The notes under the pieces were generated by a model. It searched no databases and was not told the origin of the DNA. It saw nothing but the letters and a program-made list of their open reading frames with translations. From an uncultured Candidatus Saccharibacteria bacterium (GTDB taxonomy: Bacteria > Patescibacteriota > Minisyncoccia > Phycocordibacterales > JACOZG01), in assembly GCA_964448295.1 (NCBI GenBank), contig CAYUVV010000003.1, forward strand, positions 9,543 to 73,542: a stretch of DNA of 64,000 bases, written 5' to 3'. Shown piece after piece: positions 16,404 through 61,423 of the stretch. The translations under genes were made by a program, and so were the position numbers. Each line of letters starts with the position of its first letter. Within the stretch, counting starts at the first letter, position 1.

Positions 16404-19400
16404 CTATCGTGCTGGCTTCGCCAGTCGAACTCGCAACTCCGCCCCCTCTTGGTAAGTAAGCGAGGAGAGCGAGGCCAATGTTTTGAGTTTGTTCTCGTAA
16501 CGTCTGGCTGTCTCTAAAAATTCTTTCGAGGCTGTGAGAGTGGCCGAAACCAATTGCCCGGGTTTAAGCCCGAGCACTTTACGCTCGGGTTGAATCGCTC
16601 GCACAATCTCGCGCAGGCGCCCCTCATCGCGGAGTTCATCCGTTAACTCCGTGTCCAACACAACAGATTCCGACAACTTGGTGTTAAACGCCACGGTGCG
16701 AACGTTTAACTCCTCGGCAATAATGGCTAACCAGTCAGGTTCGGCTACCAACGGTGGCGGAGATTCCCGAAAAGTAATTTTCGCGAGCGGTTGGCGAACC
16801 CTGACCCCGGCCCGTTCCCGCGCCTCAAAACCAAACGAAACCAACCGGCGCGCCGCGCGCATTGTTTCGAGTGTTTGCTCATCGCCCGTTTGCACTTCAA
16901 CTCTTGGCCAGTCCGTTAAATGAACACTGATCGGCCCGTCGGCCACACGAACGGCCTGATAAACTTCTTCCGCCAAAAACGGTGTGAAGGGGGCGAACAG
17001 CTTGGCCAACTCTTCAAGCGTCTCCCGCAGTAACTCCCCCGCTTTTCGCCTTGTTTCGACCGAGCCCGCGCGTAAACGATCACGTGAACGACGCAAATAC
17101 CATTGAGAAAGATCGGCCACAAAATCGCGCAAACGCCGCGCCGCCTCGGTGATTTTATAATTTTCCAAATCACGTGTGATACTGGCCACCAAACTCCGGC
17201 GATAAGCCAAAAGCCACTGATCGAGCGGAGTCAATTTCTTAGCCGCCGCTACTGACTTTCCCCCGTTCTTCGTTAACAAATCAGCCACATACAATTGATA
17301 AAAAGACACGACGTTCGCGAGCGGGTTGCGAACTTTCTTCACCGCCTCATCTACCAAACGTTCGTCGAAATTTTTCGATTCACCGGGCGAATTAACGGTA
17401 TACATAAAATAGCGGAGGGAATCAGCGCCGTAACGATCAATCATCGCGTTCGGCTCTACCACGTTCCCAACCGATTTCGACATTTTTTTGCCTTCCTTAT
17501 CGAGCAAGTGGCCAAGAACAATCACATTGCGATAAGGCGAACCCTTCCCCAGCAAGATGCCGATTGCGAGCAAGGTGTAGAACCAGCCACGCGTCTGATC
17601 AACGGCCTCGGCGATGTAATCGGCCGGGTACAAGGGCTCGGCGATCGCGGCCGGGTAACCATCTTCTGCCCAGGGCATCGCGCCGGAATCAAACCAGACA
17701 TCAAGCACTTCCGGCGCGCGTTTTAATTCTCGCCCCGCGTCATCTACTAAACTAATCTCATCAATAAACGGCCGGTGCAAATCGAGCTCGTAATTTTCAT
17801 TATGGGGCAGAGGCACGAAATCAAACGATTTAACCTCCGCGTTGGCAATAAAGTCATCCCCTTCACCGCGCAAGATAATGGATTCTTCAATGTTTAGTCC
17901 GCTCGCCGCCGCGAGCAACAACCAAGCCGGGCTCTCGTGTGTCACAATCAAAATCGTCTTGCCTTGGTAACGGCGCTCCAAATCATAGAGCGCGTCTCCC
18001 GTTCGGCGTTTAACATCGTTGAAACTTTCGCCACCAGGTAACGGCTTGATGAAATATTCTTCCTTAGTTTTAAAAATTTTGTGATAAACATTCACCGGCT
18101 GACGATCTAACTCACCATGATTAACTTCGCCTAAACGCTGGTCGATACTCAACCGATCATTAGGCAAGCCAAGCGCTTTGAGCACCAACTCGGCCGTCTC
18201 CCGTGTGCGTACAAAATCGGAACTGACGATTAGATCAATCTTTTCTTGCTTCAAATTCTTGGCCGCGGCGGCCACCTGTTCACAGCCGCGCTTCGTTAAA
18301 TGGTGAGGATTGTCGGCTCGCGAACTTAAAATATTTGCCGTGTTGTTCTCCGCCTCACCGTGCCGCATCACCAGATAACGATTGCCGGAACGTTTAACTC
18401 GCTTCTTTAATTCCTCGAGCGAGTCAACAACCACCGGCGCGGCGTTAGAACTATCGTCATCGGCCGGCAACCAGAAGGGTAGCGGCGTCCCCCAATAACG
18501 CTCCCGCGAAATCGCCCAATCTTTAACCTCCGTCAGCCACTCGCCAAAACGACCATGCTTGAAGTGATCCGGCTCCCAATTGATTTTCTCGTTCTCGGTC
18601 AAAAGTTCGTCGCGTAAGGCTGACATTCGGATATACCACGAAGCCCGGGCGTAGTAGAGCAAGGGCGTTTTGCACCGCCAGCAGAAAGGGTAACTATGGA
18701 GACACTTTTCTTGCCTTAGCAACAGACCCCGCTTATCCAAATCAGTAATAATGTCTCCATCAACGTTTTTGACAAAGCGACCGGCCCACGGCGTACCATC
18801 AACAAACTTACCATCCTCGGCCACAAGATGAACTTTGGGCAAACCAACCTTTTGGCCGAGAGTAAAATCATCGGCGCCGTACATCACAGCCGTGTGGACG
18901 ATGCCCGTCCCTTCGTCGGTCGTCACAAAATCGGCGGCGTAAACCCGATGCGATTTGTCGTTTTGCAATTGCGGAAAATCGAACAAGGGCTCATATTCAA
19001 GGCCAACCAATTGCGTAGCGGGAATTTGCCGGACGAGACGACTGGCCACGCCGCTTTGGGCGACGTCCGAAGGAGCGAGAAAGGTAAATTCCCGCGAAGC
19101 AATTAAGTGTTCATCGTCATGTTCAACCAACGCGTATTCAATTCCCTTCCCAACAGCCAACGCGACATTGCCGGGAAGCGTCCACGGCGTCGTCGTCCAA
19201 GCCACAAGATAAGTGTTCGGCGGCAAATCGCGGGCCTCGGGATTTTTGACCTTAAACTTCACGTACACAGCCGGGTCCTCCACCTCCTTGTAACCTTGGG
19301 CCACCTCGTGGCTTGAAAGGGCCGTACCGCAACGCGGGCACCAAGGCAAAACTTTGTAATCGCGGTAAAGCAGACCGCGCTCAGCCACTTGGCTTAAAAC

Positions 19401-19889
19401 CCACCAAACCGATTCGATATAAGAATTGTGGTAGGTAACGTAGGGGTTGGCTTGATCAACCCAAAAACCGATCCGCTCGGTAAACTGTTCCCACTCTTGC
19501 AGATATTTCCAAACGCTCGCGCGGCAACGGCGATTAAATTCGGCAAGGCCATAGTCCTCGATCTCTTTTTTGGTTTTAAGACCTAACTCTTTTTCTACTT
19601 CCAATTCCACCGGCAGGCCGTGTGTATCCCAACCGGCTTTGCGCCGCACGTGGTAACCCTGCATCGTTCGGAAACGCGGGATAACGTCTTTAAAGGCGCG
19701 AGCTTCGAGGTGGTGAATACCGGGACGACCATTGGCTGTTGGCGGACCTTCGTAGAAAACAAATTCGCCTTTAGGCGCGGGTTTGGCCAGAGTTTGCTCA
19801 AAAATTTTCTCCCGCCGCCAAAATTCGAGAATTTCCTCCTCCTTTTTAGCGATATCTGATTTTTGTAAATTGTGTTTGTCTGGTGTCAT
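16404..19889 (-). CDS. ileS: isoleucyl-tRNA synthetase with inserted histidine-phosphatase domain
   Basis: HIGH (PPTANGRPGIHH), editing-domain TTTPWTLPGN, WAISRERYWGTPLPFW, KMSKSVGNVVEP. About 190 extra residues (aa about 503-695) carry a PGAM-type signature, LVMRHGEAENN...RTRETAE...ILIVTHES. Confidence 0.9.
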   Translation of the reverse strand: MTPDKHNLQKSDIAKKEEEILEFWRREKIFEQTLAKPAPKGEFVFYEGPPTANGRPGIHHLEARAFKDVIPRFRTMQGYHVRRKAGWDTHGLPVELEVEKELGLKTKKEIEDYGLAEFNRRCRASVWKYLQEWEQFTERIGFWVDQANPYVTYHNSYIESVWWVLSQVAERGLLYRDYKVLPWCPRCGTALSSHEVAQGYKEVEDPAVYVKFKVKNPEARDLPPNTYLVAWTTTPWTLPGNVALAVGKGIEYALVEHDDEHLIASREFTFLAPSDVAQSGVASRLVRQIPATQLVGLEYEPLFDFPQLQNDKSHRVYAADFVTTDEGTGIVHTAVMYGADDFTLGQKVGLPKVHLVAEDGKFVDGTPWAGRFVKNVDGDIITDLDKRGLLLRQEKCLHSYPFCWRCKTPLLYYARASWYIRMSALRDELLTENEKINWEPDHFKHGRFGEWLTEVKDWAISRERYWGTPLPFWLPADDDSSNAAPVVVDSLEELKKRVKRSGNRYLVMRHGEAENNTANILSSRADNPHHLTKRGCEQVAAAAKNLKQEKIDLIVSSDFVRTRETAELVLKALGLPNDRLSIDQRLGEVNHGELDRQPVNVYHKIFKTKEEYFIKPLPGGESFNDVKRRTGDALYDLERRYQGKTILIVTHESPAWLLLAAASGLNIEESIILRGEGDDFIANAEVKSFDFVPLPHNENYELDLHRPFIDEISLVDDAGRELKRAPEVLDVWFDSGAMPWAEDGYPAAIAEPLYPADYIAEAVDQTRGWFYTLLAIGILLGKGSPYRNVIVLGHLLDKEGKKMSKSVGNVVEPNAMIDRYGADSLRYFMYTVNSPGESKNFDERLVDEAVKKVRNPLANVVSFYQLYVADLLTKNGGKSVAAAKKLTPLDQWLLAYRRSLVASITRDLENYKITEAARRLRDFVADLSQWYLRRSRDRLRAGSVETRRKAGELLRETLEELAKLFAPFTPFLAEEVYQAVRVADGPISVHLTDWPRVEVQTGDEQTLETMRAARRLVSFGFEARERAGVRVRQPLAKITFRESPPPLVAEPDWLAIIAEELNVRTVAFNTKLSESVVLDTELTDELRDEGRLREIVRAIQPERKVLGLKPGQLVSATLTASKEFLETARRYENKLKTLASLSSLTYQEGAELRVRLAKPAR

Positions 19890-20337: not shown

Positions 20338-21075
20338 TCAATACCGGTCGCCGTTGCCGAGATCTATTCCGGTTTCCTTTTCGATCGCGTCGGCGATGGC
20401 TAAATGGATTTCGGCTTTGGTGAGCATTTTGCCTTCGGGTGCGCAGTTGATGCGCACCCATTTGTTGTTCTCGGCCACCAAACGGAGCGCGTTCTGACGC
20501 GCGTTTTCCAAATGCACCGGATCATTCTCGGCCTGATCGGCGCCACCGCCGGCATAACGTTTTTTGTAACTCAAAAAAGCGCTCCGACGTTTTTCCAACA
20601 ACAATTTCTGACTTAGCTCGGCCGGTAAATCAAGATAGACGATGAGATCCGGTCGGGGCAAACCAAACACGCCGTATTCCATCTCGTCAAGCCAGCGCAA
20701 AAACTGGGCGCGAGCCCGGGGATCATCAATTTTTCCCCCTTGATGAATCTGGTTGGCACTAACGTAACGATCGGCCAAAACCAACCGACCGCGCCGGAGC
20801 CAGCCCTCGATCTGTCGTCGTGACTCGTAGCGGTCGGCGGCGTAGAGAACGGAGGCAATACGGGCATCAAGCGCGAGGAAATCACCGTGTTCGCCAGCCA
20901 AACACTCGCCGATCAGCTTGCCAAACAAATTATCGTAATAACGGGGAAAATCAATCGTCGCCACTTTGAATTTTTGATGGCGCAGACGGCCGGCGAGCAG
21001 TTCGATCTGAGTGGCCTTGCCCACGCCATCAATTCCGTCTATGACAATCAATCGACCGGATTTAGTTTTGACCAT
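20338..21075 (-). CDS. tmk: thymidylate (dTMP) kinase
   Basis: P-loop IVIDGIDGVGKATQ and LID region. Typical length. Confidence 0.85.
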   Translation of the reverse strand: MVKTKSGRLIVIDGIDGVGKATQIELLAGRLRHQKFKVATIDFPRYYDNLFGKLIGECLAGEHGDFLALDARIASVLYAADRYESRRQIEGWLRRGRLVLADRYVSANQIHQGGKIDDPRARAQFLRWLDEMEYGVFGLPRPDLIVYLDLPAELSQKLLLEKRRSAFLSYKKRYAGGGADQAENDPVHLENARQNALRLVAENNKWVRINCAPEGKMLTKAEIHLAIADAIEKETGIDLGNGDRY

Positions 21076-22243
21076 GTTTCAAAATCTTATCAATCCTCCG
21101 AGCAATTTGCACAAAATCTTTTTCCTGCCGACCTCGAGTGGTTTCAGCCGCTGTTCCCAAACGAATACCGGACGGGTCAACGGGCGACCTTGGATCAAAC
21201 GGAATCGTGTTTTTATTGACGATAATTCCCTCCTGCTCCAACCGTGCGCTCGCCTCGCTCCCCGCGAGACCCTGACCACCACGCCAGGTATCAACCAATA
21301 GAAGATGCGAATCGGTCCCGCCCGCGACCAAACGCCAGCCCAGATTCTGCAGTTCGGCTGCCAAGGCCTTGGCGTTTTTAACCACCTGATGCGCGTAGCG
21401 CCTAAATTCCGGCTGACTGGCTTCCGCCAAAGCGACGGCCGTCGCCGCAATCTGATTCAAATGCGGCCCGCCCTGCAACCCGGGGAATACCGCCTTATTA
21501 ATTTTCTTGTCCAGCTCACCCTGCCGACGGGAAAAAATGAGCGCGGCCCGCGGGCCGCGCAAGGTTTTGTGTGTCGTTGTCGTTACCACGTCAGCGTAAG
21601 GGAATGGTGAAGGATAAGCCCGCCCGGCCACGAGACCAGCCAAATGCGACATGTCCACCAACAGATAAGCGCCAACGGCATCGGCAATTTGCCGAAAACG
21701 CTCCCAGGCGATCAATCGCGGGTAAGCTGTAAAACCGGCGACGATCAGCCGTGGCCGTTCGCGTCGAGCGATGCTCTCCAATTCGTCGTAATCCAGTTGC
21801 TCCGTCGCGCGGTTAACGGTATAAGAGACCGGTTGCCAAAATTTCCCAGTGGCCGAAACTTTGTGCCCGTGAGTCAAATGCCCGCCGTGATCGAGCGCCA
21901 AACCCATAATTTTCTCTGCCGGAGGCACCAAGGCAAGATAGGCCGCCAGATTGGCCGGCGAACCGGATAGGGGTTGAACGTTCACCGCCCAATCGGCCGC
22001 CGGCAATCTAAATAACCTCAATGCTAATTTCTGCGTTAAATTCTCAAGCTGATCAGACACTTCGTTCCCGCCGTAATAACGTCGTCCCGGATAGCCCTCG
22101 GCGTATTTATTAACAAACTCTGAACCGAGGGCCCGTAAAACCGCCCGCGAGACATAGTTTTCCGAGGCGATCAGATTGATAACGCGTTTCTGCCGCCGCC
22201 GTTCACGGCGAACCAGCTCAACTACAAGCGTTAAATTGGTCAT
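21062..22243 (-). CDS. glyA: serine hydroxymethyltransferase
   Basis: INLIASENYVS, GYPGRRYYGG, the PLP-lysine region VTTTTHKTLRGPR. Start trimmed to the ATG at 22243 (MTNLTLVVELV...). Confidence 0.9.
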   Translation of the reverse strand: MTNLTLVVELVRRERRRQKRVINLIASENYVSRAVLRALGSEFVNKYAEGYPGRRYYGGNEVSDQLENLTQKLALRLFRLPAADWAVNVQPLSGSPANLAAYLALVPPAEKIMGLALDHGGHLTHGHKVSATGKFWQPVSYTVNRATEQLDYDELESIARRERPRLIVAGFTAYPRLIAWERFRQIADAVGAYLLVDMSHLAGLVAGRAYPSPFPYADVVTTTTHKTLRGPRAALIFSRRQGELDKKINKAVFPGLQGGPHLNQIAATAVALAEASQPEFRRYAHQVVKNAKALAAELQNLGWRLVAGGTDSHLLLVDTWRGGQGLAGSEASARLEQEGIIVNKNTIPFDPRSPVDPSGIRLGTAAETTRGRQEKDFVQIARRIDKILKHGQN

Positions 22244-22253
22244 TGCGAGCAGT

Positions 22254-22757
22254 CTATGCCAACCAACGTCCAACTGCCACCCCCAAGACGATGGCCGCAC
22301 CGCCAATAAAGAGCATCTCAAACCCCTGACGCCAATAACTAGTTTTAGACCAGTGCGCGCTTAGTAAACCAAGACCAAAAAGAGCAAGTAAAGAAAAGAC
22401 GATAGAAAAAATAAACGCCTCATGAGTTGGATACAAAAAGTAGGGAGTCAAAGGAACAAGGCCGGCCACAAAATACGAGCCGAGCATGATAATTCCACCT
22501 CCCAACGAAGCCCGAAGCGGCACAGACTGTTGACGCTCATATTCCCAAGCGGAATTATCAGAAAGTAAACTTCCAACCCCCATGGAAAAAGCTTCAACAA
22601 AAATCAAAACCACGCCGGAAATAATGATTGATGAGGGCGCGAAACCAGCTGCTGCCACGCCGGAGATCAATCCCACAGTGGAAACCAGACTATCTTCAAC
22701 CCCAAAAACGAAGTTGCGCAGATAGACACTGGAACGTTGGGGCAATTTATTGGACAC
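22254..22757 (-). CDS. VIT1/CCC1-family (DUF125) membrane protein, putative Fe/Mn transporter
   Basis: RNFVFGVEDSLVSTVGLISGVAAA is the VIT-family signature. Four to five TM helices. Confidence 0.6.
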   Translation of the reverse strand: MSNKLPQRSSVYLRNFVFGVEDSLVSTVGLISGVAAAGFAPSSIIISGVVLIFVEAFSMGVGSLLSDNSAWEYERQQSVPLRASLGGGIIMLGSYFVAGLVPLTPYFLYPTHEAFIFSIVFSLLALFGLGLLSAHWSKTSYWRQGFEMLFIGGAAIVLGVAVGRWLA

Positions 22758-22943
22758 ATTTAGATTTTAACACAAAAAAGCTACCGCGTGGCCTGGGGGG
22801 AAGACCTAACGGTAGCTCGGGAGAGGGGGGCGGAGGGGTGGTCCGCCCTTGAGTGCTTTTGTGCTTTCAAGAACAACAGCTGGTCTAAATTGTACTGGAA
22901 AAGACCGTACGAGCAAGGGTCGCGCCGGGAAAATTGGGGATAA

Positions 22944-23150
22944 CTAACGATAACGATTTTCCATCTGTTCGCGCGCATCACGAGCGGCATCTATCATCGT
23001 CCGGTAGTCCCCGACGGAAGATTGGTTGGGAACCGAACCGGATTCGGTTACGGACAAAGCCCGCCAACCATACCAAAACATTGCGCCAACAATCGCCAAC
23101 ACCACAAGCAAACCCAAAAGACCAAAACCAAGTTGTTTTTTGTTGTTCAC
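22944..23150 (-). CDS. small single-pass membrane protein
   Basis: 68 aa, one TM helix (LGFGLLGLLVVLAIVGAMFWYGW). 4-nt overlap with the enolase stop suggests co-transcription. Confidence 0.35.
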   Translation of the reverse strand: MNNKKQLGFGLLGLLVVLAIVGAMFWYGWRALSVTESGSVPNQSSVGDYRTMIDAARDAREQMENRYR

Positions 23151-24313
23151 AGTGACAGACCTTCTTCTTCAATGGCGAGTAGGCGGTTATATTTAGCCAC
23201 TCGTTCGCCGCGCGCGGGCGCTCCGAGCTTGAATCCGTCGGCGCCAATGGCGCAAGCCAAATCGGCGACAAAAGAATCGTTTGTTTCGCCAGACCGATGA
23301 GAAACAAACACTCGCCAACCCGCCACCCGAGCGGCCGCAACCGCGGCTAAAGCCTCGGTTAAGGTGCCAGCCTGATTGGGTTTGATGATCACACCATTCG
23401 CCGCCCGAGCAGCAGCGACTTCTTTTATCAAGCTAGCATTCGTTACCGTCAGATCATCACCAACAACGAGCGGCCGTTGCGGGTAGCGTGCCAAGAGCCA
23501 AGCGTGGCTGGCAAGATCATCCTCGGCAAACGGGTCTTCCAAATACCAAAGATCGTATTGACGGATAAGGTTCTCGTACAACGGCCGCAATTCGGACGGG
23601 CCAAGTCGGGTGTTACTGGCGGCCGCATCAATTCCCAAGTCTATCTCCCCCGCATTGGCAGCCGCGGCGGCGGCGCGAATCAAACCCAGAGGCAATTCAT
23701 CATCAGTGAGCGGCGGCGCGAAACCGCCCTCATCGCCAAGATTGATCGCCGCTGGCCCAAAACGCTCACGCAAACCAGCGCGCAGGGTACCGTAAACCTG
23801 AATCAGCTTCTCAATCGTCTCCCGCAGACCACGCCTCGGGGGAATAACCATAAATTCTTGCAAGACAAGACCGTTACCCGCATGGAGTCCGCCATTGATT
23901 AGATTAGCGAGCAGGCGCGGCGGCGCCGGCGTCGTTCCCGCCCAAGTCGCGAGAAAACGCCAAAGTGGCTCGCCCTGACGCTGGGCCGCCAAGCGCGCCG
24001 CGGCGAGCGACACCGCGAGAGTGGTATTGCCTCCCAGACGACTCTTATTTGACGTTCCGTCGAGCGCCAACAGGGTTTTGTCTATCAAAACCGGATCAAG
24101 AGCGTGCCGGACGAGGGCGGGAGCCACCACTTCGGTCAAAAGACGCACGGCCTCCGTCGCTGGTTTAACAACCGCTTCCCGTCGGCCGCGGGAACGGCCG
24201 GTGGGGACGGAGGCCCTCGCCCGTTCGCCACCGGTGCCTAATTCCACTTCCACCGTCCACTCTCCCCGCGAATCAAGCCTAGATCGAGCGCGACAGAGAT
24301 CGAGATAAAACAT
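23147..24313 (-). CDS. eno: enolase
   Basis: N-terminus SRLDSRGEWTVEVEL, the signature SHRSGETNDSFVADLA, and IKPNQAGTLTE. Start trimmed to the ATG at 24313. Confidence 0.9.
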   Translation of the reverse strand: MFYLDLCRARSRLDSRGEWTVEVELGTGGERARASVPTGRSRGRREAVVKPATEAVRLLTEVVAPALVRHALDPVLIDKTLLALDGTSNKSRLGGNTTLAVSLAAARLAAQRQGEPLWRFLATWAGTTPAPPRLLANLINGGLHAGNGLVLQEFMVIPPRRGLRETIEKLIQVYGTLRAGLRERFGPAAINLGDEGGFAPPLTDDELPLGLIRAAAAAANAGEIDLGIDAAASNTRLGPSELRPLYENLIRQYDLWYLEDPFAEDDLASHAWLLARYPQRPLVVGDDLTVTNASLIKEVAAARAANGVIIKPNQAGTLTEALAAVAAARVAGWRVFVSHRSGETNDSFVADLACAIGADGFKLGAPARGERVAKYNRLLAIEEEGLSL

Positions 24314-24321
24314 AATGCCAA

Positions 24322-25350
24322 TTAATTTGGACTGACTTGGTTCACGGGCGCACCCCGCCGCCAAGCTATAATATTGCCAAGTGCTGTATCGAGAATTCTT
24401 TCCAAGGCTTCCCAAGTATTGAAGGCGTTGTGGGGAGTAATAATGACGTTCGGAAGATCAATTAGCACGTGATTAGCTAAGATTGTGCGCAGATTAATTT
24501 CTGACGGGTGAACCGCGCTTAAAAAGCGTAGTTCGTCTTTGGTTGTTCCTTCTTCTTCCAACACATCAAGGGCGGCGCCGGCCAATTGGCCGCTGGTCAG
24601 GGCTTGCACCAAGGCCTCGGTTTCCACCACCGGCCCACGGCTCGTGTTTACGAGTACTGCGCCACGCTTCATCTTAGAGATCGTCTCGTGATTAATCAGG
24701 TGGTGAGTGGCTGGTAGATAAGGCACGTGCAGAGTAACTACGTCGGCCACGGCCAACAGCTCCTCCAGCGGCAGATATCGAAAGTCGAGTGTCTGGGCCA
24801 ACTCAGCATTTTCTCGAGCGTCGGTGGCCACCACCCGCATCCCAAAGCCATGCGCGATGCGAATCGCGTTGCGCCCGATATTGCCAGTGCCAACGACGCC
24901 AATCGTCTTACCTTGCAAATCAAATCCGCGCAAACCGTCTAGTTTGAAACTGCCCGTCTCGCGTATCTGATCGTAACCTTGATAAATTTTTCGAGAAAGA
25001 GCGAGCAATAGAGCGAAGGCATATTCCGCTACGGTATTTTCGCCATAACTGGGAACATTGGTGACCACCACACCTCGTTCCCGAGCGGCCGCCAAATCCA
25101 CATGATCGAAACCGGTGGATCGCGCCACCACCAACCGCAAGCGCGGCCAGCGATCAAACACCGCCTTCGTCAGCCGCGCATCCACAAAGATCGACACCAC
25201 CTCTACCGCGTCGTCGGCCGCCGGCAATTGCTGATCATCAAGAGGCCCGGCGGCAAACACCACTTCCCCGCCAAGCGCCGGCCAATCCGGACGACGAGTT
25301 AAATACTCGCGCTCCCAAGGTTCCAGATCGTAAAAAATTATTTTGGCCAT
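24322..25350 (-). CDS. D-isomer-specific 2-hydroxyacid dehydrogenase (glycerate/hydroxypyruvate/PGDH family)
   Basis: NAD-binding GKTIGVVGTGNIGRNAIR. Catalytic region RGAVLVNTSRG...AALDV. Confidence 0.8.
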   Translation of the reverse strand: MAKIIFYDLEPWEREYLTRRPDWPALGGEVVFAAGPLDDQQLPAADDAVEVVSIFVDARLTKAVFDRWPRLRLVVARSTGFDHVDLAAARERGVVVTNVPSYGENTVAEYAFALLLALSRKIYQGYDQIRETGSFKLDGLRGFDLQGKTIGVVGTGNIGRNAIRIAHGFGMRVVATDARENAELAQTLDFRYLPLEELLAVADVVTLHVPYLPATHHLINHETISKMKRGAVLVNTSRGPVVETEALVQALTSGQLAGAALDVLEEEGTTKDELRFLSAVHPSEINLRTILANHVLIDLPNVIITPHNAFNTWEALERILDTALGNIIAWRRGAPVNQVSPN

Positions 25351-25359
25351 GCGCCTTGA

Positions 25360-27780
25360 TCAAACTCCCGTCGCCCGTTCTGCGGCCGCAACCACCTCGA
25401 CCGTCTTCAGAAACGAGTCGGGGTTAAGAGAAAGACTGTCAATTCCCGCTCGCACGAGCATCGCTGCAAAATCGGGAAAATCCGACGGCGCTTGACCGCA
25501 AATTCCAATATACTTGCCGCGCCGACGGGTTACTTCAATTACTTGGAGCAACACGCGGCGCAAGGCCTCATCCGTCTCGTTGCCGATGGGCGCCAACAAA
25601 GCGGAATCGCGATCAAGCCCAAGAACTAGCTGGGTTAAATCATTCGAACCGATCGAATATCCGTCAAACCGATTCAAAAACTCTTCAGCCAAAATGATAT
25701 TGGAAGGAATCTCGCACATCATATAGATCTTGAGACTTTGATCTCGAGAGCGATCTAGGCCGTCCTCAACCATCGCCGCAAGAACGCGATCGGCCTCGCC
25801 GAGCGTCCGACAAAACGGCACCATCGGCACAATGTTCCGCAAACCAAAAACCTCGCGCGCTCGTTTCAACGCTTGGCACTCAAGCGCGAACGCCGCTCGA
25901 AAATTAGGGTGATAATAACGAGATGTTCCCCGCCAACCAAGCATCGGGTTTTCTTCCTCCGGTTCGTACAACGCGCCGCCGAGCAGAGTGCGATACTCGT
26001 TGGTTTTGAAATCGGAAAAACGGATAATCGCTTCACGCGGATAAACCGCCGCCGCGATTTTAGCCACACCCTCGGCCAACTCTTCCACATAATATTGACG
26101 TTTATCAGCATAACCACGAGTCAACGTTTCCACTTCATGCGCCAAGGTTTGATGCTCGGGTACAGTTTTCACCTTCTCAAAATTAATCAGCAAATTGGGA
26201 TGAACGCGAATGTGGGAATTGATAATGAACTCGAGCCGACCCAAACCCACACCCGCGGCTGGCAAGCGGTAATGCCGAAAAGCTTCCTCCGGCGAGCCAA
26301 CATTAAGCATCAATTTAGTTTTAGTAGTCGGTAAAACGTCAAGCCGATGATCAAGGATCCGAAAGGGCAGAGCGCCGCGGTAGATCACCCCATCGCGACC
26401 CGAAGAGCAGTCCACCGTGACCGTCTCGCCGGTGGGAATTTTTGACGTGGCATCGCCCGTGCCCACCACGCAAGGAATACCAAGCTCCCGCGAAACGATC
26501 GCCGCGTGCGAGGTCCGACCTCCGCGGTCAGTTACAATAGCGGAAGCAATTTTCATAATCGGCTCCCAGTCGGGATCGGTGATCTCGGTGATCAGCACTT
26601 CCCCTTTCTCAAACTCGCGCAGGTGTTGTGGCGAGCGGATCAACCGAGCGCGGCCGGTCGCGATTTTCGCCCCCACCGCCGCCCCAATCGCCAAACGTTC
26701 GCCCCCACCTCCTTCCAAACGATATTCGCGGTAAACGTTTTGGTCTGCCGTCGAATGCACGGTCTCCGGCCGAGCCTGGACCACAAACAATTGACCACTC
26801 TGGCCATCTTTCGCCCACTCGATATCCATCGGTTGGAAACGGCCATAATGTTTGGAGAAGTATTCTTCGATCAACACCCCCCAACGCGCCAGCTCCAACA
26901 CCTCGTCGTCGGTAATCGAAAAGCGGTTTTGCTCTTCCGTTGAAACCGGCACCAGCTTGATCTGATCGCGATCATAAATAATTTTTTTATCTTTAAGACC
27001 TAGGTCTTTGGCAATAATCGCTCGCGCGCCCGTGGCAAGCGTGGGTTTGAAAATCACAAATTCGTCGGGGGTCACCCCGCCCTGCACAATCAGCTCGCCC
27101 AAACCATAAGCGGCATTAATCACCACCACCTTCGGGAAACCGCTCTCGGTGTCGATGGTAAACATCACGCCGCTCGCCGCGAGATCAGAGCGCACCATCC
27201 TTTGCACGGTCACGGAAAGCGAAACATCAAGATGGGCGAAACCCTTGTCTTGGCGGTAAGAAATCGCTCGATCGGTAAACAAGGAGGCAAAACATTTTTT
27301 TACCGCTACCACCACCGCTTCTTCGCCGCGCACATTCAAATAGGTTTCTTGCTGGCCGGCAAAAGAAGCGCCGGGCAGATCTTCGGCGGTAGCTGAAGAC
27401 CGAACGGCGACTTCGTTATCACCGCCATACTTCTGTCCCAGCTCTCGATAGGCCACACGAACCGCTTCCGCTAAATCACTGGGCATTTCAGCCGATAAAA
27501 TACTTTCGCGCACCGCTCGACCGCGCGCCTGCAAATCAGGAAAATTGTGTGTATCAAGACCGCGCAACAATTCCGCCAGTTTGGTCTGCAAACCAGACTC
27601 ATGAATAAAATGATCGTAGGCCGCAGCCGTAACCGCGAAACCGTCTGGCACGCGCACCCCGAGCGGAGTCAAGCGTTGGAACATCTCACCCAAAGAGGCG
27701 TTTTTTCCGCCCACGAGCGCAACATCGCCCAAATTAATCTCCCCCAACCAACTAATTAGCTTGCTTGCACCTGATGCCAT
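25360..27780 (-). CDS. ppsA: phosphoenolpyruvate synthase (pyruvate, water dikinase)
   Basis: N-terminal DVALVGGKNASLGEM. Phosphohistidine domain GGRTSHAAIVSRELGIPCVVG. C-terminal PEP-utilising domain SIGSNDLTQLVLGLDRDS. About 800 aa. Confidence 0.85.
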   Translation of the reverse strand: MASGASKLISWLGEINLGDVALVGGKNASLGEMFQRLTPLGVRVPDGFAVTAAAYDHFIHESGLQTKLAELLRGLDTHNFPDLQARGRAVRESILSAEMPSDLAEAVRVAYRELGQKYGGDNEVAVRSSATAEDLPGASFAGQQETYLNVRGEEAVVVAVKKCFASLFTDRAISYRQDKGFAHLDVSLSVTVQRMVRSDLAASGVMFTIDTESGFPKVVVINAAYGLGELIVQGGVTPDEFVIFKPTLATGARAIIAKDLGLKDKKIIYDRDQIKLVPVSTEEQNRFSITDDEVLELARWGVLIEEYFSKHYGRFQPMDIEWAKDGQSGQLFVVQARPETVHSTADQNVYREYRLEGGGGERLAIGAAVGAKIATGRARLIRSPQHLREFEKGEVLITEITDPDWEPIMKIASAIVTDRGGRTSHAAIVSRELGIPCVVGTGDATSKIPTGETVTVDCSSGRDGVIYRGALPFRILDHRLDVLPTTKTKLMLNVGSPEEAFRHYRLPAAGVGLGRLEFIINSHIRVHPNLLINFEKVKTVPEHQTLAHEVETLTRGYADKRQYYVEELAEGVAKIAAAVYPREAIIRFSDFKTNEYRTLLGGALYEPEEENPMLGWRGTSRYYHPNFRAAFALECQALKRAREVFGLRNIVPMVPFCRTLGEADRVLAAMVEDGLDRSRDQSLKIYMMCEIPSNIILAEEFLNRFDGYSIGSNDLTQLVLGLDRDSALLAPIGNETDEALRRVLLQVIEVTRRRGKYIGICGQAPSDFPDFAAMLVRAGIDSLSLNPDSFLKTVEVVAAAERATGV

Positions 27781-27785
27781 AATGT

Positions 27786-29102
27786 TTATTTGGCCTTAAC
27801 AGCAATAATTAAGTCGGCCACATTAGACCCTAAGCGGCCGGTATTGATAAAATTGGCAGTTCGCTCAAAAAAAGCGAACGACTCGTGACGATCTAAAAAA
27901 TCGCTCGGCCGAAGGCCGGCCGCCAACGTCGCGGCGCGTGTCATCTTATCGGCAATGGCGCCCGCATGCGGCGTGTTGTCCCAACCGTCGGAAGCGAGTG
28001 TGAGCACTAATTCATTGTCGCGCACTTCCGGCAAGACGGCCAGCGCTAGTTCTTGATTTCGACCGCCCCACGGACGATCGCTCGTCGTCAGGCGCCGATG
28101 TCCACCTGCGGTGAACGTGGTCACATGACTCTCGCCGCCAAACAAAAGAACCGCGCCGGGCTGGGTCGAATGCAAACGCTCGAGCACATCCCGACCAACA
28201 ACCGCCGCTTCGCCTTCAAACGCGGAAGCGGCAATCGTCGGCTGAAAACCGCGCGCTGCGGCGCTCCGAGCCATTGCTTCCAAAGCCAACTGGTTAGACA
28301 CGATCAAAAAATTGGTCGACAGAGAAAAATAGTGGTCATCTTTTGGGGTTTCCAGCAGATTCGCCGGGGGGAACAACGCGGTAAGACCGAAACGACGCAG
28401 AACCGCCGCCGCGTCCGTAACGGTTGTTACGTCACGAACCGTCGGGCCGGACGCAATAAAGCCGATATCATCGCCCGGCACGTCGGAAAAAATTAAACCG
28501 ACCAAGCGTGCTGGGTAAGCGGTCTTGGCCCAAAATCCGCCGCGGGCAATTGAGAGATGTTTGCGCACCAGATTGATCTCTTGAATCCGCGCCCCCGCCA
28601 CAAATAATTTGGAGACCAGCTCCGACTCGACGTGGCACAAAAAATTGTGAGGTTGGCACAGCAGTGTCGAACCGCCGCCCGAAACTATCGCCAAAACTAG
28701 ATCATCTGGTCCGGCCCGCTCGAGCCAAGCAAGTAGACGTTTGGTGTGGTCAACATTGGCTTGACTCGGCAACGGATGATCGCCCGCGCATCCTTCCAGT
28801 CTCCGCAACGGGCGATCACACCGGACGTCAATCACTAAACCGCCGGTGATACGATCGCCGAGCACGGATTCTAGTTCTGCGGCCGCATCGAGCGCGCACT
28901 TACCTACTCCCACCACAATGAGTTGCGCCGTCGGCGCGAGCGGGAATATCTGACCGTTAACTTCTATCCCCCCGTCGCGCCCCCGAACCGACCGGCGAAT
29001 CGCAGCCGCGGTATCGATCGCCTCTAAACCGGCTTCCGCCCACCCGAGAGCTTCACGTCGTAACGCCGTCGTGGCTAAAGTTTCAAAATTTTTAATCCGC
29101 AC
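27786..29102 (-). CDS. glycerate 2-kinase (MOFRL family, DUF4147 N-terminus)
   Basis: Hydroxypyruvate-reductase-annotated fold typical of MOFRL. The C-terminus DGWDNTPHAGAIADKMT...NTGRLGSNVADLIIAVKAK fits MOFRL. Confidence 0.65.
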   Translation of the reverse strand: MRIKNFETLATTALRREALGWAEAGLEAIDTAAAIRRSVRGRDGGIEVNGQIFPLAPTAQLIVVGVGKCALDAAAELESVLGDRITGGLVIDVRCDRPLRRLEGCAGDHPLPSQANVDHTKRLLAWLERAGPDDLVLAIVSGGGSTLLCQPHNFLCHVESELVSKLFVAGARIQEINLVRKHLSIARGGFWAKTAYPARLVGLIFSDVPGDDIGFIASGPTVRDVTTVTDAAAVLRRFGLTALFPPANLLETPKDDHYFSLSTNFLIVSNQLALEAMARSAAARGFQPTIAASAFEGEAAVVGRDVLERLHSTQPGAVLLFGGESHVTTFTAGGHRRLTTSDRPWGGRNQELALAVLPEVRDNELVLTLASDGWDNTPHAGAIADKMTRAATLAAGLRPSDFLDRHESFAFFERTANFINTGRLGSNVADLIIAVKAK

Positions 29103-29119
29103 CCAATTATTGTACCAAG

Positions 29120-30730
29120 TTAGTGAAAAAATTTGTTGCGATTGGAGTGGGAAAGATGCTCGAGCGCAAAAGATCGGTTGTCGCCCGTCTTTTTCTTGGG
29201 GTTAAAAACGTTCAACGGATCAAACAGATTCTCAATCGCCGCAAAAAGATCAAGAATCGCCGGCGGATACATCAAAGGGAGGAAAGAGGTGCGGACCAAC
29301 CCATCATTGTGTTCGCCCGCCAACCCGCCACCCACTCCCACCACCAACTTGAACACATCTTCCGCCAACTCCGGAATCCAAGCGCGCTGTTGGGGATTAG
29401 TGAGATCCACCAGCGGAATAAGATGAAAATTGCCATCCCCAATGTGTCCGGCCAGCGTGTAGGTCAGCTGGTAACGGCTCAAAATCGCTTCTAGTTTCGG
29501 CAAAAATTCTGGTAAGCGAGGGGGAGGGACAATGATGTCATCAATAAACGGCGCCGGACGGAGTTGCCCGCCCGCGTGTTCACACAACAAACGAAAACTG
29601 GCCCGCCGGATCTGCCAAAAAGCGTTCGCCGCTTCGGGAGAAACGATCTCCCCCGACACTCCTGGCAAATGAAGAGCTTGAAGAGAGTATGCCGCCCGCT
29701 CCACACGACGCAGAGCCTCGTCAGTGGTGGGGCCGGAAAATTGGGCAAGGAGAGAAAGAGCGGCGCCGCCGCTAGCGGCCGCGGCCCGCGCCGTTTCCGC
29801 CAAAAATCGCTTAGCGAGGTCGTAAGTATGACGATCATAAGATTCAAAACAGTCGGGTTGGTGCGCCAAAATTGCGCTCACCACCGCTGGCAAAACTTTT
29901 AAATTGTCGAGGGTAATCACGAGCACCCGCTCGGCGGCCGGCCTCGGCACGAGAGAAAAAACAATCTCCGTAATGATCCCGATGGTGCCTTGCGAGCCAA
30001 CGAACAATTTGGGTAAATCAAGGACTTGCCCGTCCCATAGATCCCAAATCAAGTAACCGGCCGAATTTTTCGACACCTGAGGTTTAGTCCGCTTAAGCAA
30101 TAGATTGTTTTTCTCAATTAAATCCCATAAACCCGTAACTATTCGGGCAAAAAAATTGTCTTGTTTTTGTAGCATTTCCAGCTCGTTTCGATGGAGAGGT
30201 TTAATATCGTGCTCCTTGCCATCGGCCAGAACCACTTTCAAACTTTTTACATAACGGGCCGTGCTTCCATAACGCAGAGTTCTCTCGCCGGCGGCATTAT
30301 TCCCCACCATTCCGCCTACGGCGCACAAATCTTTCGACGCAGTGTAAGCCGGCATCAGCAAACCTTGAGCTAAAGTGGCCTTTTCCAGATCGCGGTAAAA
30401 AACACCGGGGCCGGCGGTAATCGTCTCCCCCACCACCGGCCCAAGCTGGTTAAAATGCGGCATCAAATCCACCATCAAAGAATCGGTAAGTGAGCCGCCT
30501 GACATGCAGGTCCCCGCCGCGCGCGGCGAGAGCGACAAATCTTCGCCGCCGCGGCGGCGTTCACTCACAAACTTAACCAGCCGCTCCAGATCTCCCACAC
30601 TCCGTGGCTGGATCACCGCGCGGGGTTTAACTTCAAAAATACTCGCATCAACACTGTAATCAGCGAGCGTGGTCTCATCGTCGAGTACTACCCCTACTTC
30701 CAAATTTTTTAAATCGTCAACGAAAGACAC
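29120..30730 (-). CDS. FAD-linked oxidase (GlcD / D-lactate dehydrogenase-like)
   Basis: PCMH-type FAD-binding N-terminus (PRAAGTCMSGGSL). FAD-oxidase C-terminal domain. About 536 aa. Confidence 0.8.
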   Translation of the reverse strand: MSFVDDLKNLEVGVVLDDETTLADYSVDASIFEVKPRAVIQPRSVGDLERLVKFVSERRRGGEDLSLSPRAAGTCMSGGSLTDSLMVDLMPHFNQLGPVVGETITAGPGVFYRDLEKATLAQGLLMPAYTASKDLCAVGGMVGNNAAGERTLRYGSTARYVKSLKVVLADGKEHDIKPLHRNELEMLQKQDNFFARIVTGLWDLIEKNNLLLKRTKPQVSKNSAGYLIWDLWDGQVLDLPKLFVGSQGTIGIITEIVFSLVPRPAAERVLVITLDNLKVLPAVVSAILAHQPDCFESYDRHTYDLAKRFLAETARAAAASGGAALSLLAQFSGPTTDEALRRVERAAYSLQALHLPGVSGEIVSPEAANAFWQIRRASFRLLCEHAGGQLRPAPFIDDIIVPPPRLPEFLPKLEAILSRYQLTYTLAGHIGDGNFHLIPLVDLTNPQQRAWIPELAEDVFKLVVGVGGGLAGEHNDGLVRTSFLPLMYPPAILDLFAAIENLFDPLNVFNPKKKTGDNRSFALEHLSHSNRNKFFH

Positions 30731-30801: not shown

Positions 30802-31521
30802 CTAGAGAGAAAAACAAAAACATTCCCGCACCCGATCAAACACGCCCTCTCGCCGCGAGCCAGGACAGGAAATCGAGACCTGGGCCTGAAACTGCGCCAG
30901 CTCACTAAAGGACCGGTGAACCTCAATCAGACACCATTCAGTTGGTTTAAGAAACTGCAAATCCGCCCCCGGAAGTGATGATCCAAGAAGGTGTTCAATA
31001 ACTGCCGGGTAAGTCACCACCACTACCACGCAATCATCCTTGGCGGGATCAGACAGGGATAACAAGTTCGCAAACATCCAATCATGCAACCACAATTTCC
31101 GATCCCGCAAACAATCAGGATCAAAATACTGATTCAGAATCGTGCCCCCATTCTTGTCTGAAACAAACTCCGGCCACACCTCAAGAAAAGTCTGGGCAGT
31201 CTGTTTTGCCGCCATCCACGATGAAGCGATCATTGCGCGATTGGAGGGCAGTGGCTTTCTAGCCGTCGTCTGGTAGTCGGTTTTAATTTGCTTAGCAGCC
31301 GTTCGAATATACCGTTTCTCTCTATTAGGTATGCAAGCGTCGGATTCAGGGCGCCAAGTATAACCAGCAACCAAAAGAACTAACCAACTCGGGGCAACAC
31401 CGCGCACCGTCGCAGGAAAAGCCGATCGGGTTTTGGGCATACTTTTACTCCCCACAAAAAGAACGTCAATTCTCAATGAGCCACACTGGAAATATTTATA
31501 GCATAAAAAGTTACCAAGCAA
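30802..31521 (-). CDS. hypothetical protein with possible degenerate histidine-phosphatase (SixA-like) fold
   Basis: ASSWMAAKQTAQ resembles the SSPLLRAxQTA motif but lacks the Arg. ...VVVVTYPAVIEHLLG resembles the SixA C-terminus. No RHG motif. Start uncertain. Confidence 0.35.
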   Translation of the reverse strand: MLGNFLCYKYFQCGSLRIDVLFVGSKSMPKTRSAFPATVRGVAPSWLVLLVAGYTWRPESDACIPNREKRYIRTAAKQIKTDYQTTARKPLPSNRAMIASSWMAAKQTAQTFLEVWPEFVSDKNGGTILNQYFDPDCLRDRKLWLHDWMFANLLSLSDPAKDDCVVVVVTYPAVIEHLLGSSLPGADLQFLKPTEWCLIEVHRSFSELAQFQAQVSISCPGSRREGVFDRVRECFCFSL

Positions 31522-45999: not shown

Positions 46000-46171
46000 A
46001 TTTGAGTTCTATTCTGGTGCTGGCATATTAACCTTTGCGCAAACCCATTTCACACGCGCGGAGCGCGTGGTGAATCGGGACTGAATCGTACGCTCTCCAC
46101 CCCGCCCGCCCTGTGCGCGCACAAATCCCAGCCGTTTTGAGGAGATATTATAAAACGGCGGGGATTGCTCC

Positions 46172-46678
46172 CTACATCAACTTTTTCATCCAAAAGAAAA
46201 ACCTTTTCGCTAAACTAACGATTATCAAACTAGAATACTTTTTGTAAATCTTACCAGTACTATCTTTTACATAGACATAGAAAATATCACTCACTTCTAC
46301 TGGAATAAACTTACCATTTTCAGAATCGTAGAAAGTAAATTCTTCCTGTCCCTGTGGTTTTAGCTGTTCACCTATTACAACACGGCGATGTTCTTCTTCT
46401 TTTGTTTTTCCGTCCCATGTCTTTATGCCAAAGGCAATAATATTGATACTCCGCCGAGTGCTTGTGTTTGTTGCGTTTATCCAAAACCCACTTCGACCGG
46501 CCCCTCTTTTATCAAAAATATATGTTAATTTGACTCTCTTATTTTCAAAGTAAATTGTTACAAGCAACGTCAAGAACAAGAGGAGCGTTGTAATCCATTC
46601 GGCCGGGTTGGCTTTGAATTGAGAAACAGCGAAAGATAGCATCGAGACTAAACTATTGATACTACGGCTGAACACCAT
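46172..46678 (-). CDS. hypothetical single-pass membrane protein (island gene 3)
   Basis: TM helix WITTLLLFLTLLVTIYF followed by a 120-aa beta-rich domain. 17-nt overlap with the protease gene. Confidence 0.5.
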   Translation of the reverse strand: MVFSRSINSLVSMLSFAVSQFKANPAEWITTLLLFLTLLVTIYFENKRVKLTYIFDKRGAGRSGFWINATNTSTRRSINIIAFGIKTWDGKTKEEEHRRVVIGEQLKPQGQEEFTFYDSENGKFIPVEVSDIFYVYVKDSTGKIYKKYSSLIIVSLAKRFFFWMKKLM

Positions 46679-47852
46679 ATTGGCGCTGTAGGCGTAATAG
46701 TTCTTCTCTTGCTGTTACTCTATATTCGTCAAAAAGAGCGTCTGCTTCATCAATGACTTGCGCAGAAGACCCACCATCTAATGCATACATTGCCAGTTCA
46801 CTCACCTCGCTGATATAAGCTGTCAAGATTCTCCTCAAGTTTTGAAGTTCTGGTTCAGCGATTAACTTATTTTTTACTATTATAATTTCATAGTAATATT
46901 TAGCGCAACTCTTTTTATAGTTAGCCATTTCCTCATCAATATTATCGGGAATCATTTCCGGAGTACCATATTTAACTAAATTATTTCCTTTACCAAGAAT
47001 TGTGCAGTTAATATCTGCCTCAACAACTTTTTCCTCAAGTACATTTTCAAACTCAACTATCTGTGCTTTGATTCTTGAATAATCTTTCTGTGGCGCAGGT
47101 TGTGATGGTTTTGGTTGTGACGCCGTTGCTTTCGGTTTTGGTGCAAGAATTTCTCGACCATTTTTAAGATCGGGAATCAATCCTTTTACGGCATTTATCG
47201 GAATTGCCAATTTTATCGTTTCTCCGATTGTGACTCCCTCGATAGACTCACCAAAACCCGCCGAATTTATACCTACAACTTCGCCGGAATGATTGACGAG
47301 AGGTCCGCCACTATTCCCCGGATGAATTTCAGCAGAAGTTTCGAGAAAAGTTACGTCTCCGTCACTAATGCGCCTGGAAATTGTTCCCTCCTTAAAACTC
47401 ACATCACCCTCCAATCCGAACGGAAAGCCGAGTGTAAAAACATTATTACCCTGCACTATCGCGTCAGAATCTCCGAATTTTACGAAAGGAAAATTTTCCC
47501 CGCTAATTTTCAAAATTGCAACATCGATAATTTCGTCTCGTCCTTTTACTTCGGCAGAATAAAGTTGTCCGTCAGACAATTTTACTTTCGCGGTGGAAAC
47601 GTCCGCGACAACATGAGCGTTAGTTAAAATATAGCCTTCCGCGTTAATTATCATTCCACTACCAACGCCTTCGGTTGTTTCGATATAAACTGTCGCGGGT
47701 TTTACCTCCGTAACAATTTCAGTGTTTGATAAAACTTTTTGTTCATTCCCAATTTTAGGTAGGTCAAAGTTTTTGTAAGCAACAACACCTCCGGAGATCA
47801 AGATAAGACCGCCCAAAATAATAAGCCCTAGTTTTGTGGTTAATATATTCAT
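46662..47852 (-). CDS. membrane-anchored trypsin-fold (S1/HtrA-like) serine protease with unknown C-terminal helical domain instead of PDZ
   Basis: N-terminal TM helix. Catalytic His (LTNAHVV), Asp (DVAILKI), Ser (GNSGGPLV). Pro/Gln linker, then a 170-aa domain with no recognised family. Confidence 0.75.
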   Translation of the reverse strand: MNILTTKLGLIILGGLILISGGVVAYKNFDLPKIGNEQKVLSNTEIVTEVKPATVYIETTEGVGSGMIINAEGYILTNAHVVADVSTAKVKLSDGQLYSAEVKGRDEIIDVAILKISGENFPFVKFGDSDAIVQGNNVFTLGFPFGLEGDVSFKEGTISRRISDGDVTFLETSAEIHPGNSGGPLVNHSGEVVGINSAGFGESIEGVTIGETIKLAIPINAVKGLIPDLKNGREILAPKPKATASQPKPSQPAPQKDYSRIKAQIVEFENVLEEKVVEADINCTILGKGNNLVKYGTPEMIPDNIDEEMANYKKSCAKYYYEIIIVKNKLIAEPELQNLRRILTAYISEVSELAMYALDGGSSAQVIDEADALFDEYRVTAREELLRLQRQYGVQP

Positions 47853-48067
47853 TTCGTGAAGTAGTCTAATGATTTATTGTAGATTTTTGCTAACTCATCT
47901 AATTCTACCGCATCTATCCGCCGCTCGCCTCGCTCTATCTTGGAAATATACGCCTGCGGTTTCTTTAATTGCTTCCCCGCCTCAATTTGCGTCAAATCTG
48001 CCTCTAGACGAGCTTGGCGGAGACGCTGGATGAGTTTTTGATATTTTGCTCGGTATTTACTCGCCAT
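47849..48067 (-). CDS. XRE-family helix-turn-helix transcriptional regulator
   Basis: LRQARLEADLTQIEAGKQLKKPQAYISKIERGER is the classic XRE HTH. 4-nt overlap with the protease gene. Confidence 0.8.
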   Translation of the reverse strand: MASKYRAKYQKLIQRLRQARLEADLTQIEAGKQLKKPQAYISKIERGERRIDAVELDELAKIYNKSLDYFTK

Positions 48068-61422: not shown

Positions 61423-61423
61423 T

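Follow-up and report, generated by a model that had tools for sequence, protein, structure and literature searches.

A complete, apparently active histidine phosphatase domain within the isoleucyl-tRNA synthetase of Patescibacteria

The isoleucyl-tRNA synthetase (IleRS) gene, ileS, in a 64,000-nucleotide stretch of DNA from an uncultured Candidatus Saccharibacteria bacterium (contig CAYUVV010000003.1 of assembly GCA_964448295.1; hereafter the window) encodes a synthetase with a histidine phosphatase domain inside its catalytic core. An earlier note, made from the letters of the window, had claimed that this is an intact domain of the PGAM/CobC type and unlikely to be a relic; profile searches, the predicted fold, the catalytic residues of all 120 of the best homologs and a lineage-wide distribution bear this out. 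The insert was placed by the note at 17805..18383, which translates exactly to residues 503-695 of the protein. Searched with the whole protein, PF00300 (His_Phos_1) matches residues 506-669 with E=7.5e-33, and the search with the insert alone, proposed in the note as a check, gave E=2.9e-34; the domain scores 114-119 bits against a gathering score of 21.7 bits. The phosphohistidine signature [LIVM]-x-R-H-G-[EQ]-x-x-[WN] is matched exactly, as had been stated, by VMRHGEAEN at residue 507, and this is its sole match in the six frames of the window. The presence of a histidine phosphatase domain inside this IleRS is thus confirmed, far beyond chance.

We modelled the insert with AF2 and obtained a confident prediction (pLDDT 97.4, pTM 0.93) with the alpha/beta PGAM-like fold. 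Foldseek aligned this model with probability 1.00 and TM-scores of 0.75-0.82 over about 195 columns to complete phosphatases of about 205 residues, the neighbours being PspA (4ij6), mycobacterial GpgP (6s2q/4pz9), the riboflavin-pathway HFP (9mmh), CobC (6nru) and PhoE (1h2e). Five residues, R509, H510, R561, E588 and H651, do not vary in any of the 120 homologs; in the same alignment G511 is kept in 114, N516 in 118 and E621 in 119 sequences, and R629 is nearly invariant. The statement that all four catalytic elements are conserved therefore stood, except that the general acid is E588, aligned to E83 of PhoE, and not the Glu of the 'GES' motif, E621. Based on sequence and model together, the nested domain is apparently a whole and active phosphatase. 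Histidine phosphatases work by a two-step phospho-histidine mechanism. In the window protein, H510 would attack a phosphomonoester whose phosphate would be held by R509, R561, H651 and N516, E588 would protonate the leaving group, and water would then hydrolyse phospho-H510 and free the phosphate.

To judge the authenticity of the arrangement we compared assemblies and homologs. The identical 1161-residue protein is encoded on an NCBI contig of 85 kb and again in the Logan assembly of run SRR15237813, which was made independently. The survey of IleRS orthologs suggested by the note found the same insertion in 120 of the 120 best homologs (49-70% identity, 1099-1225 residues), all of them PF00300-positive, with a common insertion point in the alignment and with source names of Vogel-, Zambryski-, Campbell- or Paceibacteria, or simply Patescibacteria. 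When one genome for each GTDB species was scanned, at least 185 relatives were returned, and almost all of the 80 loci kept from it bear Patescibacteria-type names. The window protein, in which PF00300 breaks PF00133 at the CP3 loop and whose genome context is patescibacterial, belongs to this group, and the order IleRS-RecO-DUF11/CLIPPER is common to the window and to Paceibacteria contigs. The frameshift or assembly join that the note had named as grounds for dismissal is excluded by the uninterrupted open reading frame, by the homologs and by the second assembly. A recent horizontal insertion was rejected in view of the lineage-wide presence of the insert and its gene-like composition (GC 0.49 and third-position GC 0.54, compared with 0.52-0.53 and 0.57-0.58 in the rest of the gene). 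An intein-like element, considered on account of a conserved 'PHN' at the C-terminal junction, was rejected, the domain having a PGAM fold without HINT features. The phosphatase domain shows 46% identity to the window protein and the anticodon-binding domain 47%, suggesting a similar evolutionary rate; since the catalytic residues are also invariant in all 120 homologs, we conclude from the alignment that the phosphatase domain is under selection as an enzyme. Only the a priori oddity of the architecture speaks for a catalytically irrelevant structural module, a relic or an artefact, an explanation that is scarcely credible when the catalytic residues are invariant here and in every extra copy (see below), the same protein occurs in two independent assemblies, the architecture is lineage wide and the model is confident.

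The insertion point was mapped on the closest IleRS structures, the IleRS2-type enzymes of Priestia megaterium (8c8w, 784 bits) and Thermus thermophilus (1ile, 766 bits), the best PDB matches to the window protein. The alignment to 8c8w stops at query residue 494 and restarts at 696, equivalent to chain residues 474 and 480, and therefore about 200 residues stand in place of a loop that in 8c8w and 1ile has about five. This region is the CP3 subdomain of IleRS structures (PMC7191050; PMC7955072), the two papers from which we took the domain names. CP3 begins directly after the CP2-3 linker (WAISRERYWG in the window protein), which in yeast IleRS lines the pocket for the tRNA CCA end and reveromycin (PMC7955072). 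As CP3 persists on both flanks of the insert, the alignment indicates that the phosphatase is nested within CP3 and does not substitute for it; in the C-terminal half of CP3, residues D703, H705, P707, D710 and R724 are invariant among the 120 homologs. In 1ile and 8c8w, CP3 forms a Cys4 zinc knuckle, whereas the window protein has lost all four knuckle cysteines from its flanks at 18447..18470 and 17733..17765 (minus strand; WLPADDD...; ...LVDDAGRELKR). The CxxC...CxC pattern does occur alongside the insert in 19/120 close homologs and in most distant insert-bearing representatives, and as far as the sequences tell, the ancestral CP3 therefore still had its zinc knuckle and carried the phosphatase in the tip loop. 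The zinc site evidently turned dispensable once the insertion had occurred.

Features of the ileS gene in the window (positions are those of the window; all features lie on the minus strand)
Feature	Position	Strand	Basis
Whole IleRS gene, 1161 residues plus stop; IleRS2-type class Ia synthetase with nested phosphatase	16404..19889	-	single uninterrupted open reading frame
Residues 1-473: Rossmann fold first half, CP core, CP1 editing domain, CP2, CP2-3 linker (WAISRERYWG)	18471..19889	-	aligned to 8c8w and to 1ile residues ~11-455
HIGH motif in the non-canonical GXHH form, 'GIHH', residues 57-60	19710..19721	-	aligned to 'GVHH' of 8c8w
CP3 N-terminal half, residues 474-502 (LPADDDSSNAAPVVVDSLEELKKRVKRSG); Cys-x-x-Cys zinc ligands gone	18384..18470	-	aligned to 8c8w 'WECEGCQHQVAPKSIKEL'
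Residues 503-695: whole branch-1 histidine phosphatase domain, nested in the tip loop of CP3	17805..18383	-	PF00300, AF2, Foldseek
RHG motif, R509-H510-G511; H510 is the predicted phospho-accepting nucleophile	18357..18365	-	codons checked; aligned to PhoE R9/H10
R561, second arginine of the phosphate pocket	18207..18209	-	invariant; aligned to PhoE R59
E588 (GEVNHGE), predicted general acid	18126..18128	-	invariant; aligned to PhoE E83
H651 (LIVTHES), second catalytic histidine	17937..17939	-	invariant; aligned to PhoE H151
CP3 C-terminal half, residues 696-729 (HNENYELDLHRPFIDEISLVDDAGRELKRAPEVL); second pair of zinc ligands gone	17703..17804	-	aligned to 8c8w residues 480-~512
Residues 730-1161: Rossmann second half (DVWFDSG), SC fold, anticodon-binding domain, C-terminal DUF5915	16404..17702	-	Pfam and 8c8w alignment
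KMSKS motif, residues 802-806	17472..17486	-	regular expression

The host protein is an IleRS and not a sibling synthetase: TIGR00392 (ileS) scores 883 bits against a cut-off of 621, with its match split into two stretches and a gap between them, compared with 396 bits for valS and at most 166 bits for leuS (NCBIfam). Pfam finds tRNA-synt_1, Anticodon_1 (residues 890-1036) and DUF5915 (1076-1137) flanking His_Phos_1, and the full-length AF2 model has a pLDDT of 91.2 and a pTM of 0.84. The hallmarks of a class I enzyme, namely KMSKS, the GXHH form of HIGH, the CP1 editing domain and the anticodon-binding domain, are all present, and residues 199-401, the CP1 editing region, match isolated IleRS editing-domain structures (1wk8, E=4e-36). 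Domain order, KMSKS, the CP1 editing domain and the position of CP3 are common to the window protein, 8c8w and 1ile, and the GXHH form is common to the window protein and 8c8w. Around GIHH, P56 and H59 are invariant in the 120 homologs and H60 is conserved in more than 90%. The GXHH form has been linked to mupirocin hyper-resistance in IleRS2. The exception models for the resistance proteins MupA and MupB score 701-718 bits on the window IleRS against a cut-off of 1900, so that the kinship is one of IleRS2 type only. The 64-kb window holds no second ileS.

We then compared the insert with the characterised subfamilies of its superfamily. The scores against specific models fell widely short of their cut-offs for cofactor-dependent phosphoglycerate mutase (dPGM; NF038349, dPGM_arch, 77 against 225; TIGR01258, 28 against 81.7; PRK14115-14120, 17-22 against 305-421), for CobC (TIGR03162, 74 against 162.9; PRK15004, 59 against 250), for SixA (42 against 74.5 bits) and for PspA (NF045917, 57.7 against 350), even though PspA is the nearest solved structure. 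Membership of the GpmB and MSMEG_4193 families was likewise rejected on NCBIfam scores below the cut-offs. The insert can thus be assigned by sequence to the superfamily and to no characterised subfamily; of the label 'cobC-type' in the earlier note only a resemblance remains, because the specific cut-offs for dPGM, CobC and PspA are missed. The best NCBIfam match is the phosphatase half of PRK07238, an RNase H/acid phosphatase (83 bits against a cut-off of 326), and the best PDB sequence match has E=1.6e-9 (phmmer). PspA (4ij5/4ij6), PhoE (1h2e/1ebb), CobC (6nru/6e4b), GpgP (4pz9/6s2q) and HFP (9mmh) share with the insert the fold, the size, the catalytic residues and the 'GGES' loop, but they have only 21-27% identity to it and are free-standing metabolic enzymes with no synthetase pairing. 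PRK07238 (Rv2228c-type) resembles the insert in that its CobC-like phosphatase half is fused to a nucleic-acid enzyme; the fusion with RNase H is end to end, whereas the phosphatase of the window is nested in the synthetase.

These scores also bear on the suggestion that the domain is the dPGM of the cell, feeding the enolase encoded about 4 kb away in a genome otherwise without a phosphoglycerate mutase. The second-best NCBIfam match is indeed dPGM_arch, genes for enolase and phosphoenolpyruvate (PEP) synthase lie close by, and similar inserts in SR1 were named 'phosphoglycerate mutase domains' (Kantor et al., 2013; PMC3812714). Yet the dPGM_arch and TIGR01258 cut-offs are missed by the margins given above, the domain of about 190 residues lacks the dPGM C-terminal tail and has 'HES' instead of 'HGN', and the dPGMs in the PDB are more distant from it than the phosphatases are. 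In addition, the MOFRL-type glycerate kinase encoded nearby may presumably produce 2-phosphoglycerate directly. A mutase role is therefore highly improbable.

The bare architecture is not new, because precomputed Pfam annotations already display it. A full-text literature search for a fusion of PGAM with a tRNA synthetase found only one sentence, which reports that the IleRS of SR1 (Absconditabacteria) is interrupted by 'phosphoglycerate mutase domains' (Kantor et al., 2013, mBio; PMC3812714); that paper describes neither a function nor the site of insertion, and it contains no analysis of conservation and no split-gene form. The SR1 enzyme has two PGAM domains and a Nudix domain, whereas the window IleRS, from the Paceibacteria side, has one copy and no Nudix. 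Another extra catalytic domain, an N-acetyltransferase, is known from NF040702 (ileS_w_GNAT), which indicates that IleRS tolerates added enzyme domains; the window protein scores 353 bits against 1999 with that model. What is new here is the exact insertion site, the lineage-wide conservation of the catalytic residues, the existence of nested and split forms with adjacency in 9/9 split loci, and the variants with several copies or in valyl-tRNA synthetase (ValRS).

A search of representatives with the insert returned 887 proteins at E<=1e-10, of which we inspected the best 150. These were mostly IleRSs, whole or fragmentary, together with about 30 proteins of 185-215 residues. Apart from such free-standing forms, the domain was confined among the 150 to class Ia synthetases and a few Sua5/YrdC fusions, and none of them was an N-terminal fusion of phosphatase and IleRS. 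Two IleRSs (P0175, P0221) have tandem copies in CP3, and two others, both of 1419 residues (P0252, P0260), have one copy in CP3 and a second between the SC fold and the anticodon domain, about 65 residues past KMSKS; the latter are of the same general kind as the SR1 enzyme. Four copies are present in a metagenomic protein of 1161 residues on a contig of about 3.9 kb (P0137), which is a ValRS (valS 380-410 bits, ileS 199), and the domain is hence not strictly specific to IleRS; this reading frame is possibly truncated. The RHG..R..E..H catalytic motif is kept in all extra copies. A further protein (P0198) is a fusion of His_Phos with Sua5/YrdC, the threonylcarbamoyl-AMP synthase, and its phosphatase belongs to the same subfamily as that in IleRS. 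We considered this fusion as a sign of a common adenylate/pyrophosphate chemistry, an idea weakened by the many unrelated domains to which patescibacterial Sua5/YrdC proteins (P0198, P0394-P0396 and others) are fused: an MGMT-like domain (PF01035, the commonest), TruB, 2H/cyclic phosphodiesterase, methylpurine glycosylase (MPG), GNAT and Nudix.

With one of the short proteins (P0186) as the query we retrieved over 500 members of a free-standing phosphatase family in Parcubacteria/Paceibacterota. In all six long contigs that we looked up, a phosphatase gene of about 195 codons lies directly upstream of ileS on the same strand; the two genes overlap by up to 8 nt or are separated by up to 41 nt, and in several of these loci the phosphatase gene overlaps the ileS start. 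The partner synthetases, of 949-989 residues, which form a sister group, lack PF00300 and are genuine IleRSs (718-990 bits, NCBIfam); all retain the zinc knuckle of CP3, with 3-6 residues at the position of the insert. Downstream of ileS follow RecO and then a DUF11/CLIPPER protein, as in the window. A metagenome scan with the insert-less IleRS segment gave 80 loci, seven of them with Paceibacteria synteny; the upstream phosphatase is present in 3/3 of these seven that have enough upstream DNA, bringing the adjacency in the split group to 9/9 loci. Among the 73 loci without the synteny markers, 0/54 with enough upstream DNA have an adjacent same-strand phosphatase. Paceibacteria thus conserve the phosphatase-IleRS pairing in two layouts that can replace each other: the phosphatase is nested in CP3 or has a gene of its own directly upstream of ileS.

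The free-standing homologs share 33-41% identity with the insert and score 160-209 bits against its profile. The catalytic residues are present in every adjacent copy, the general-acid position being Asp rather than Glu in most, and 117/124 free-standing relatives have Asp at the position equivalent to E588. In one Paceibacteria locus (L088, 5001..6182) the free-standing gene is present in two tandem copies, both with the full catalytic set, upstream of an ileS without the insert; the pair parallels the tandem copies inside some IleRSs. The identities of phosphatase and IleRS co-vary across the split loci, a pattern that would fit one old event followed by co-descent. In a neighbour-joining tree of about 220 domains, which is star-like and weakly rooted, by midpoint only, the main free-standing clade is clean (46 leaves, stem 0.12) and lies inside the inserted radiation.

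What might the phosphatase do for an IleRS? Our leading reading, which we hold tentatively and at rather less than even odds, is that it forms an accessory active site that serves the synthetase, and not some unrelated metabolism, by taking a phosphomonoester off a nucleotide-type ligand or the tRNA end at or near the synthetic site. Candidate substrates would be a tRNA(Ile) acceptor end blocked by a 3'-phosphate and nucleoside phosphates such as AMP or 3'-phospho-nucleotides. This reading is suggested by a pairing that is obligate in every layout seen, by the repeated entry of the domain into class Ia synthetases, by an insertion point that adjoins the acceptor-end pocket, and by the lack of simple N-terminal fusions; the adjacent layout would most easily give rise to these, and their absence hints that position matters. 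That PRK07238, the best NCBIfam match, is itself a fusion with a nucleic-acid enzyme may be added in its favour.

Nearly as likely is an autonomous 'cargo' phosphomonoesterase of the PhoE/PspA/CobC kind, needed for the metabolism of the cell and housed in a loop that tolerates insertions, within an essential gene expressed constitutively. Its link with ileS would be historical, through operon, fusion or fission, and would serve co-expression only, in a tiny genome; its substrates might be phosphoserine, a sugar phosphate or a nucleotide. Several observations weigh against a function in the synthetase and at the same time favour such a passenger. The nearest relatives are not RNA-end or protein phosphatases but metabolic enzymes that act on small molecules and have a cap region, which the fold of the insert retains. 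Copy number, between one and four, and insertion site are flexible, a poor fit to a precisely aimed active site. Fusion is weak evidence of a mechanistic link because patescibacterial Sua5/YrdC carries so many unrelated domains, His_Phos among them. Gene order is conserved throughout the SmpB-IF3-L35-L20-ArgRS-[phosphatase]-IleRS-RecO block, so that adjacency may be inherited inertia. A further point against a role in the synthetase is that, to our knowledge, canonical IleRS chemistry involves no phosphomonoester, and we know of no phosphorylated ligand specific to IleRS that could be named. In favour of the passenger, the free-standing form clearly works as a protein of its own, and the adjoining cluster for serine, glycerate and lower glycolysis (SHMT, 2-hydroxyacid dehydrogenase, glycerate kinase, enolase) could use a phosphatase. 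A mere passenger is harder to reconcile with the 9/9 association in the split group, where the genes overlap or nearly abut, with a domain found at three or more sites or enzymes among class Ia synthetases and elsewhere, in the 150 best representatives, only in the few Sua5/YrdC fusions, with the missing N-terminal fusions, and with cut-offs missed for every metabolic subfamily.

A narrower form of the synthetase-serving reading, in which the phosphatase is a third active site of the synthetase for an RNA or nucleotide substrate and, for example, strips 3'-phosphates from damaged or toxin-blocked tRNA(Ile) before charging, is in our opinion rather unlikely. In SR1-type enzymes, with their Nudix domain, removal of a 3'-pyrophosphate from tRNA(Ile) ends would also be conceivable. 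If true, tRNA-end repair or phospho-proofreading would for the first time be seen built into an aminoacyl-tRNA synthetase, and it would be conserved across a major bacterial radiation.

The phosphatase might instead be directed at its own host, as a phosphoprotein phosphatase or phospho-metabolite sensor that keeps IleRS unphosphorylated or tunes its activity. HipA-type kinases target active-site loops of class I synthetases, and the histidine phosphatase superfamily includes the protein phosphatases PGAM5, Sts-1 and SixA. The specific pairing with a synthetase and the second insertion site of the two-copy variants, not far past KMSKS, are compatible with such a regulator. The structural neighbours of the insert, however, are small-molecule enzymes and not SixA, Sts or PGAM5, the SixA cut-off is missed, and the proposal is drawn by analogy, with no known kinase partner or phosphosite; we regard it as improbable.

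Aminoacyl-tRNA synthetases are among the best-studied enzymes, and most of the extra domains known in them serve editing, tRNA binding or signalling. An intact phosphatase that is fused to IleRS or coupled to it in an operon across much of Patescibacteria would point to a need of isoleucine charging that has gone unrecognised in these ultra-small symbionts; otherwise it is a striking case of an essential gene with an enzyme as its nested 'cargo'. The same two proteins occur as one chain or as two, a natural experiment that makes the functional question directly testable.

The nested domain also appears to affect annotation. Most insert-bearing IleRSs are named merely 'class I tRNA ligase family protein' by NCBI, and several free-standing phosphatases of about 195 residues are named 'isoleucyl-tRNA synthetase' by JGI, which appears to be a side-effect of the nested domain; metabolic reconstructions of the candidate phyla radiation (CPR) can consequently miscount both IleRS and 'PGAM'. 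Insert-bearing IleRSs were further seen in a metagenome-assembled genome (MAG) labelled Nitrospira (L070, JBEBJM010000005.1), probably on a mis-binned Patescibacteria contig, and in a MAG labelled Berkelbacteria (L018). Many titles of the form 'uncultured Candidatus Saccharibacteria' resemble placeholder names.

Directly upstream of ileS in the window, a same-strand run of genes (20338..30730, minus strand) encodes thymidylate kinase, SHMT, VIT1, enolase, D-2-hydroxyacid dehydrogenase, a PEP synthase/PPDK-like enzyme, glycerate kinase (DUF4147+MOFRL) and an FAD-linked oxidase. By their sequences these genes look like a route from serine and glycerate to PEP, and no separate phosphoglycerate mutase was found in the run. 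Beyond it, a 239-residue reading frame with a TTG start (30802..31521, minus strand) lies between the FAD oxidase gene and an SDR gene. The earlier note had taken it for a degenerate member of the phosphatase fold, for which we found no support: it has no Pfam match at E<=1, no NCBIfam match at E<=10 and no PDB sequence match at E<=10, and its hhalign comparison with the insert profile gave a probability of 0.5% and E=0.12 over 41 columns. Its sequence suggests either an orphan or no real gene. Finally, GC content falls to 0.405 at 46001..48000, with a tRNA-Leu (48180..48262) at the edge of the dip, and to about 0.45 at 58001..64000, compared with 0.51-0.57 elsewhere in the window; these low-GC stretches could be foreign or mobile DNA.

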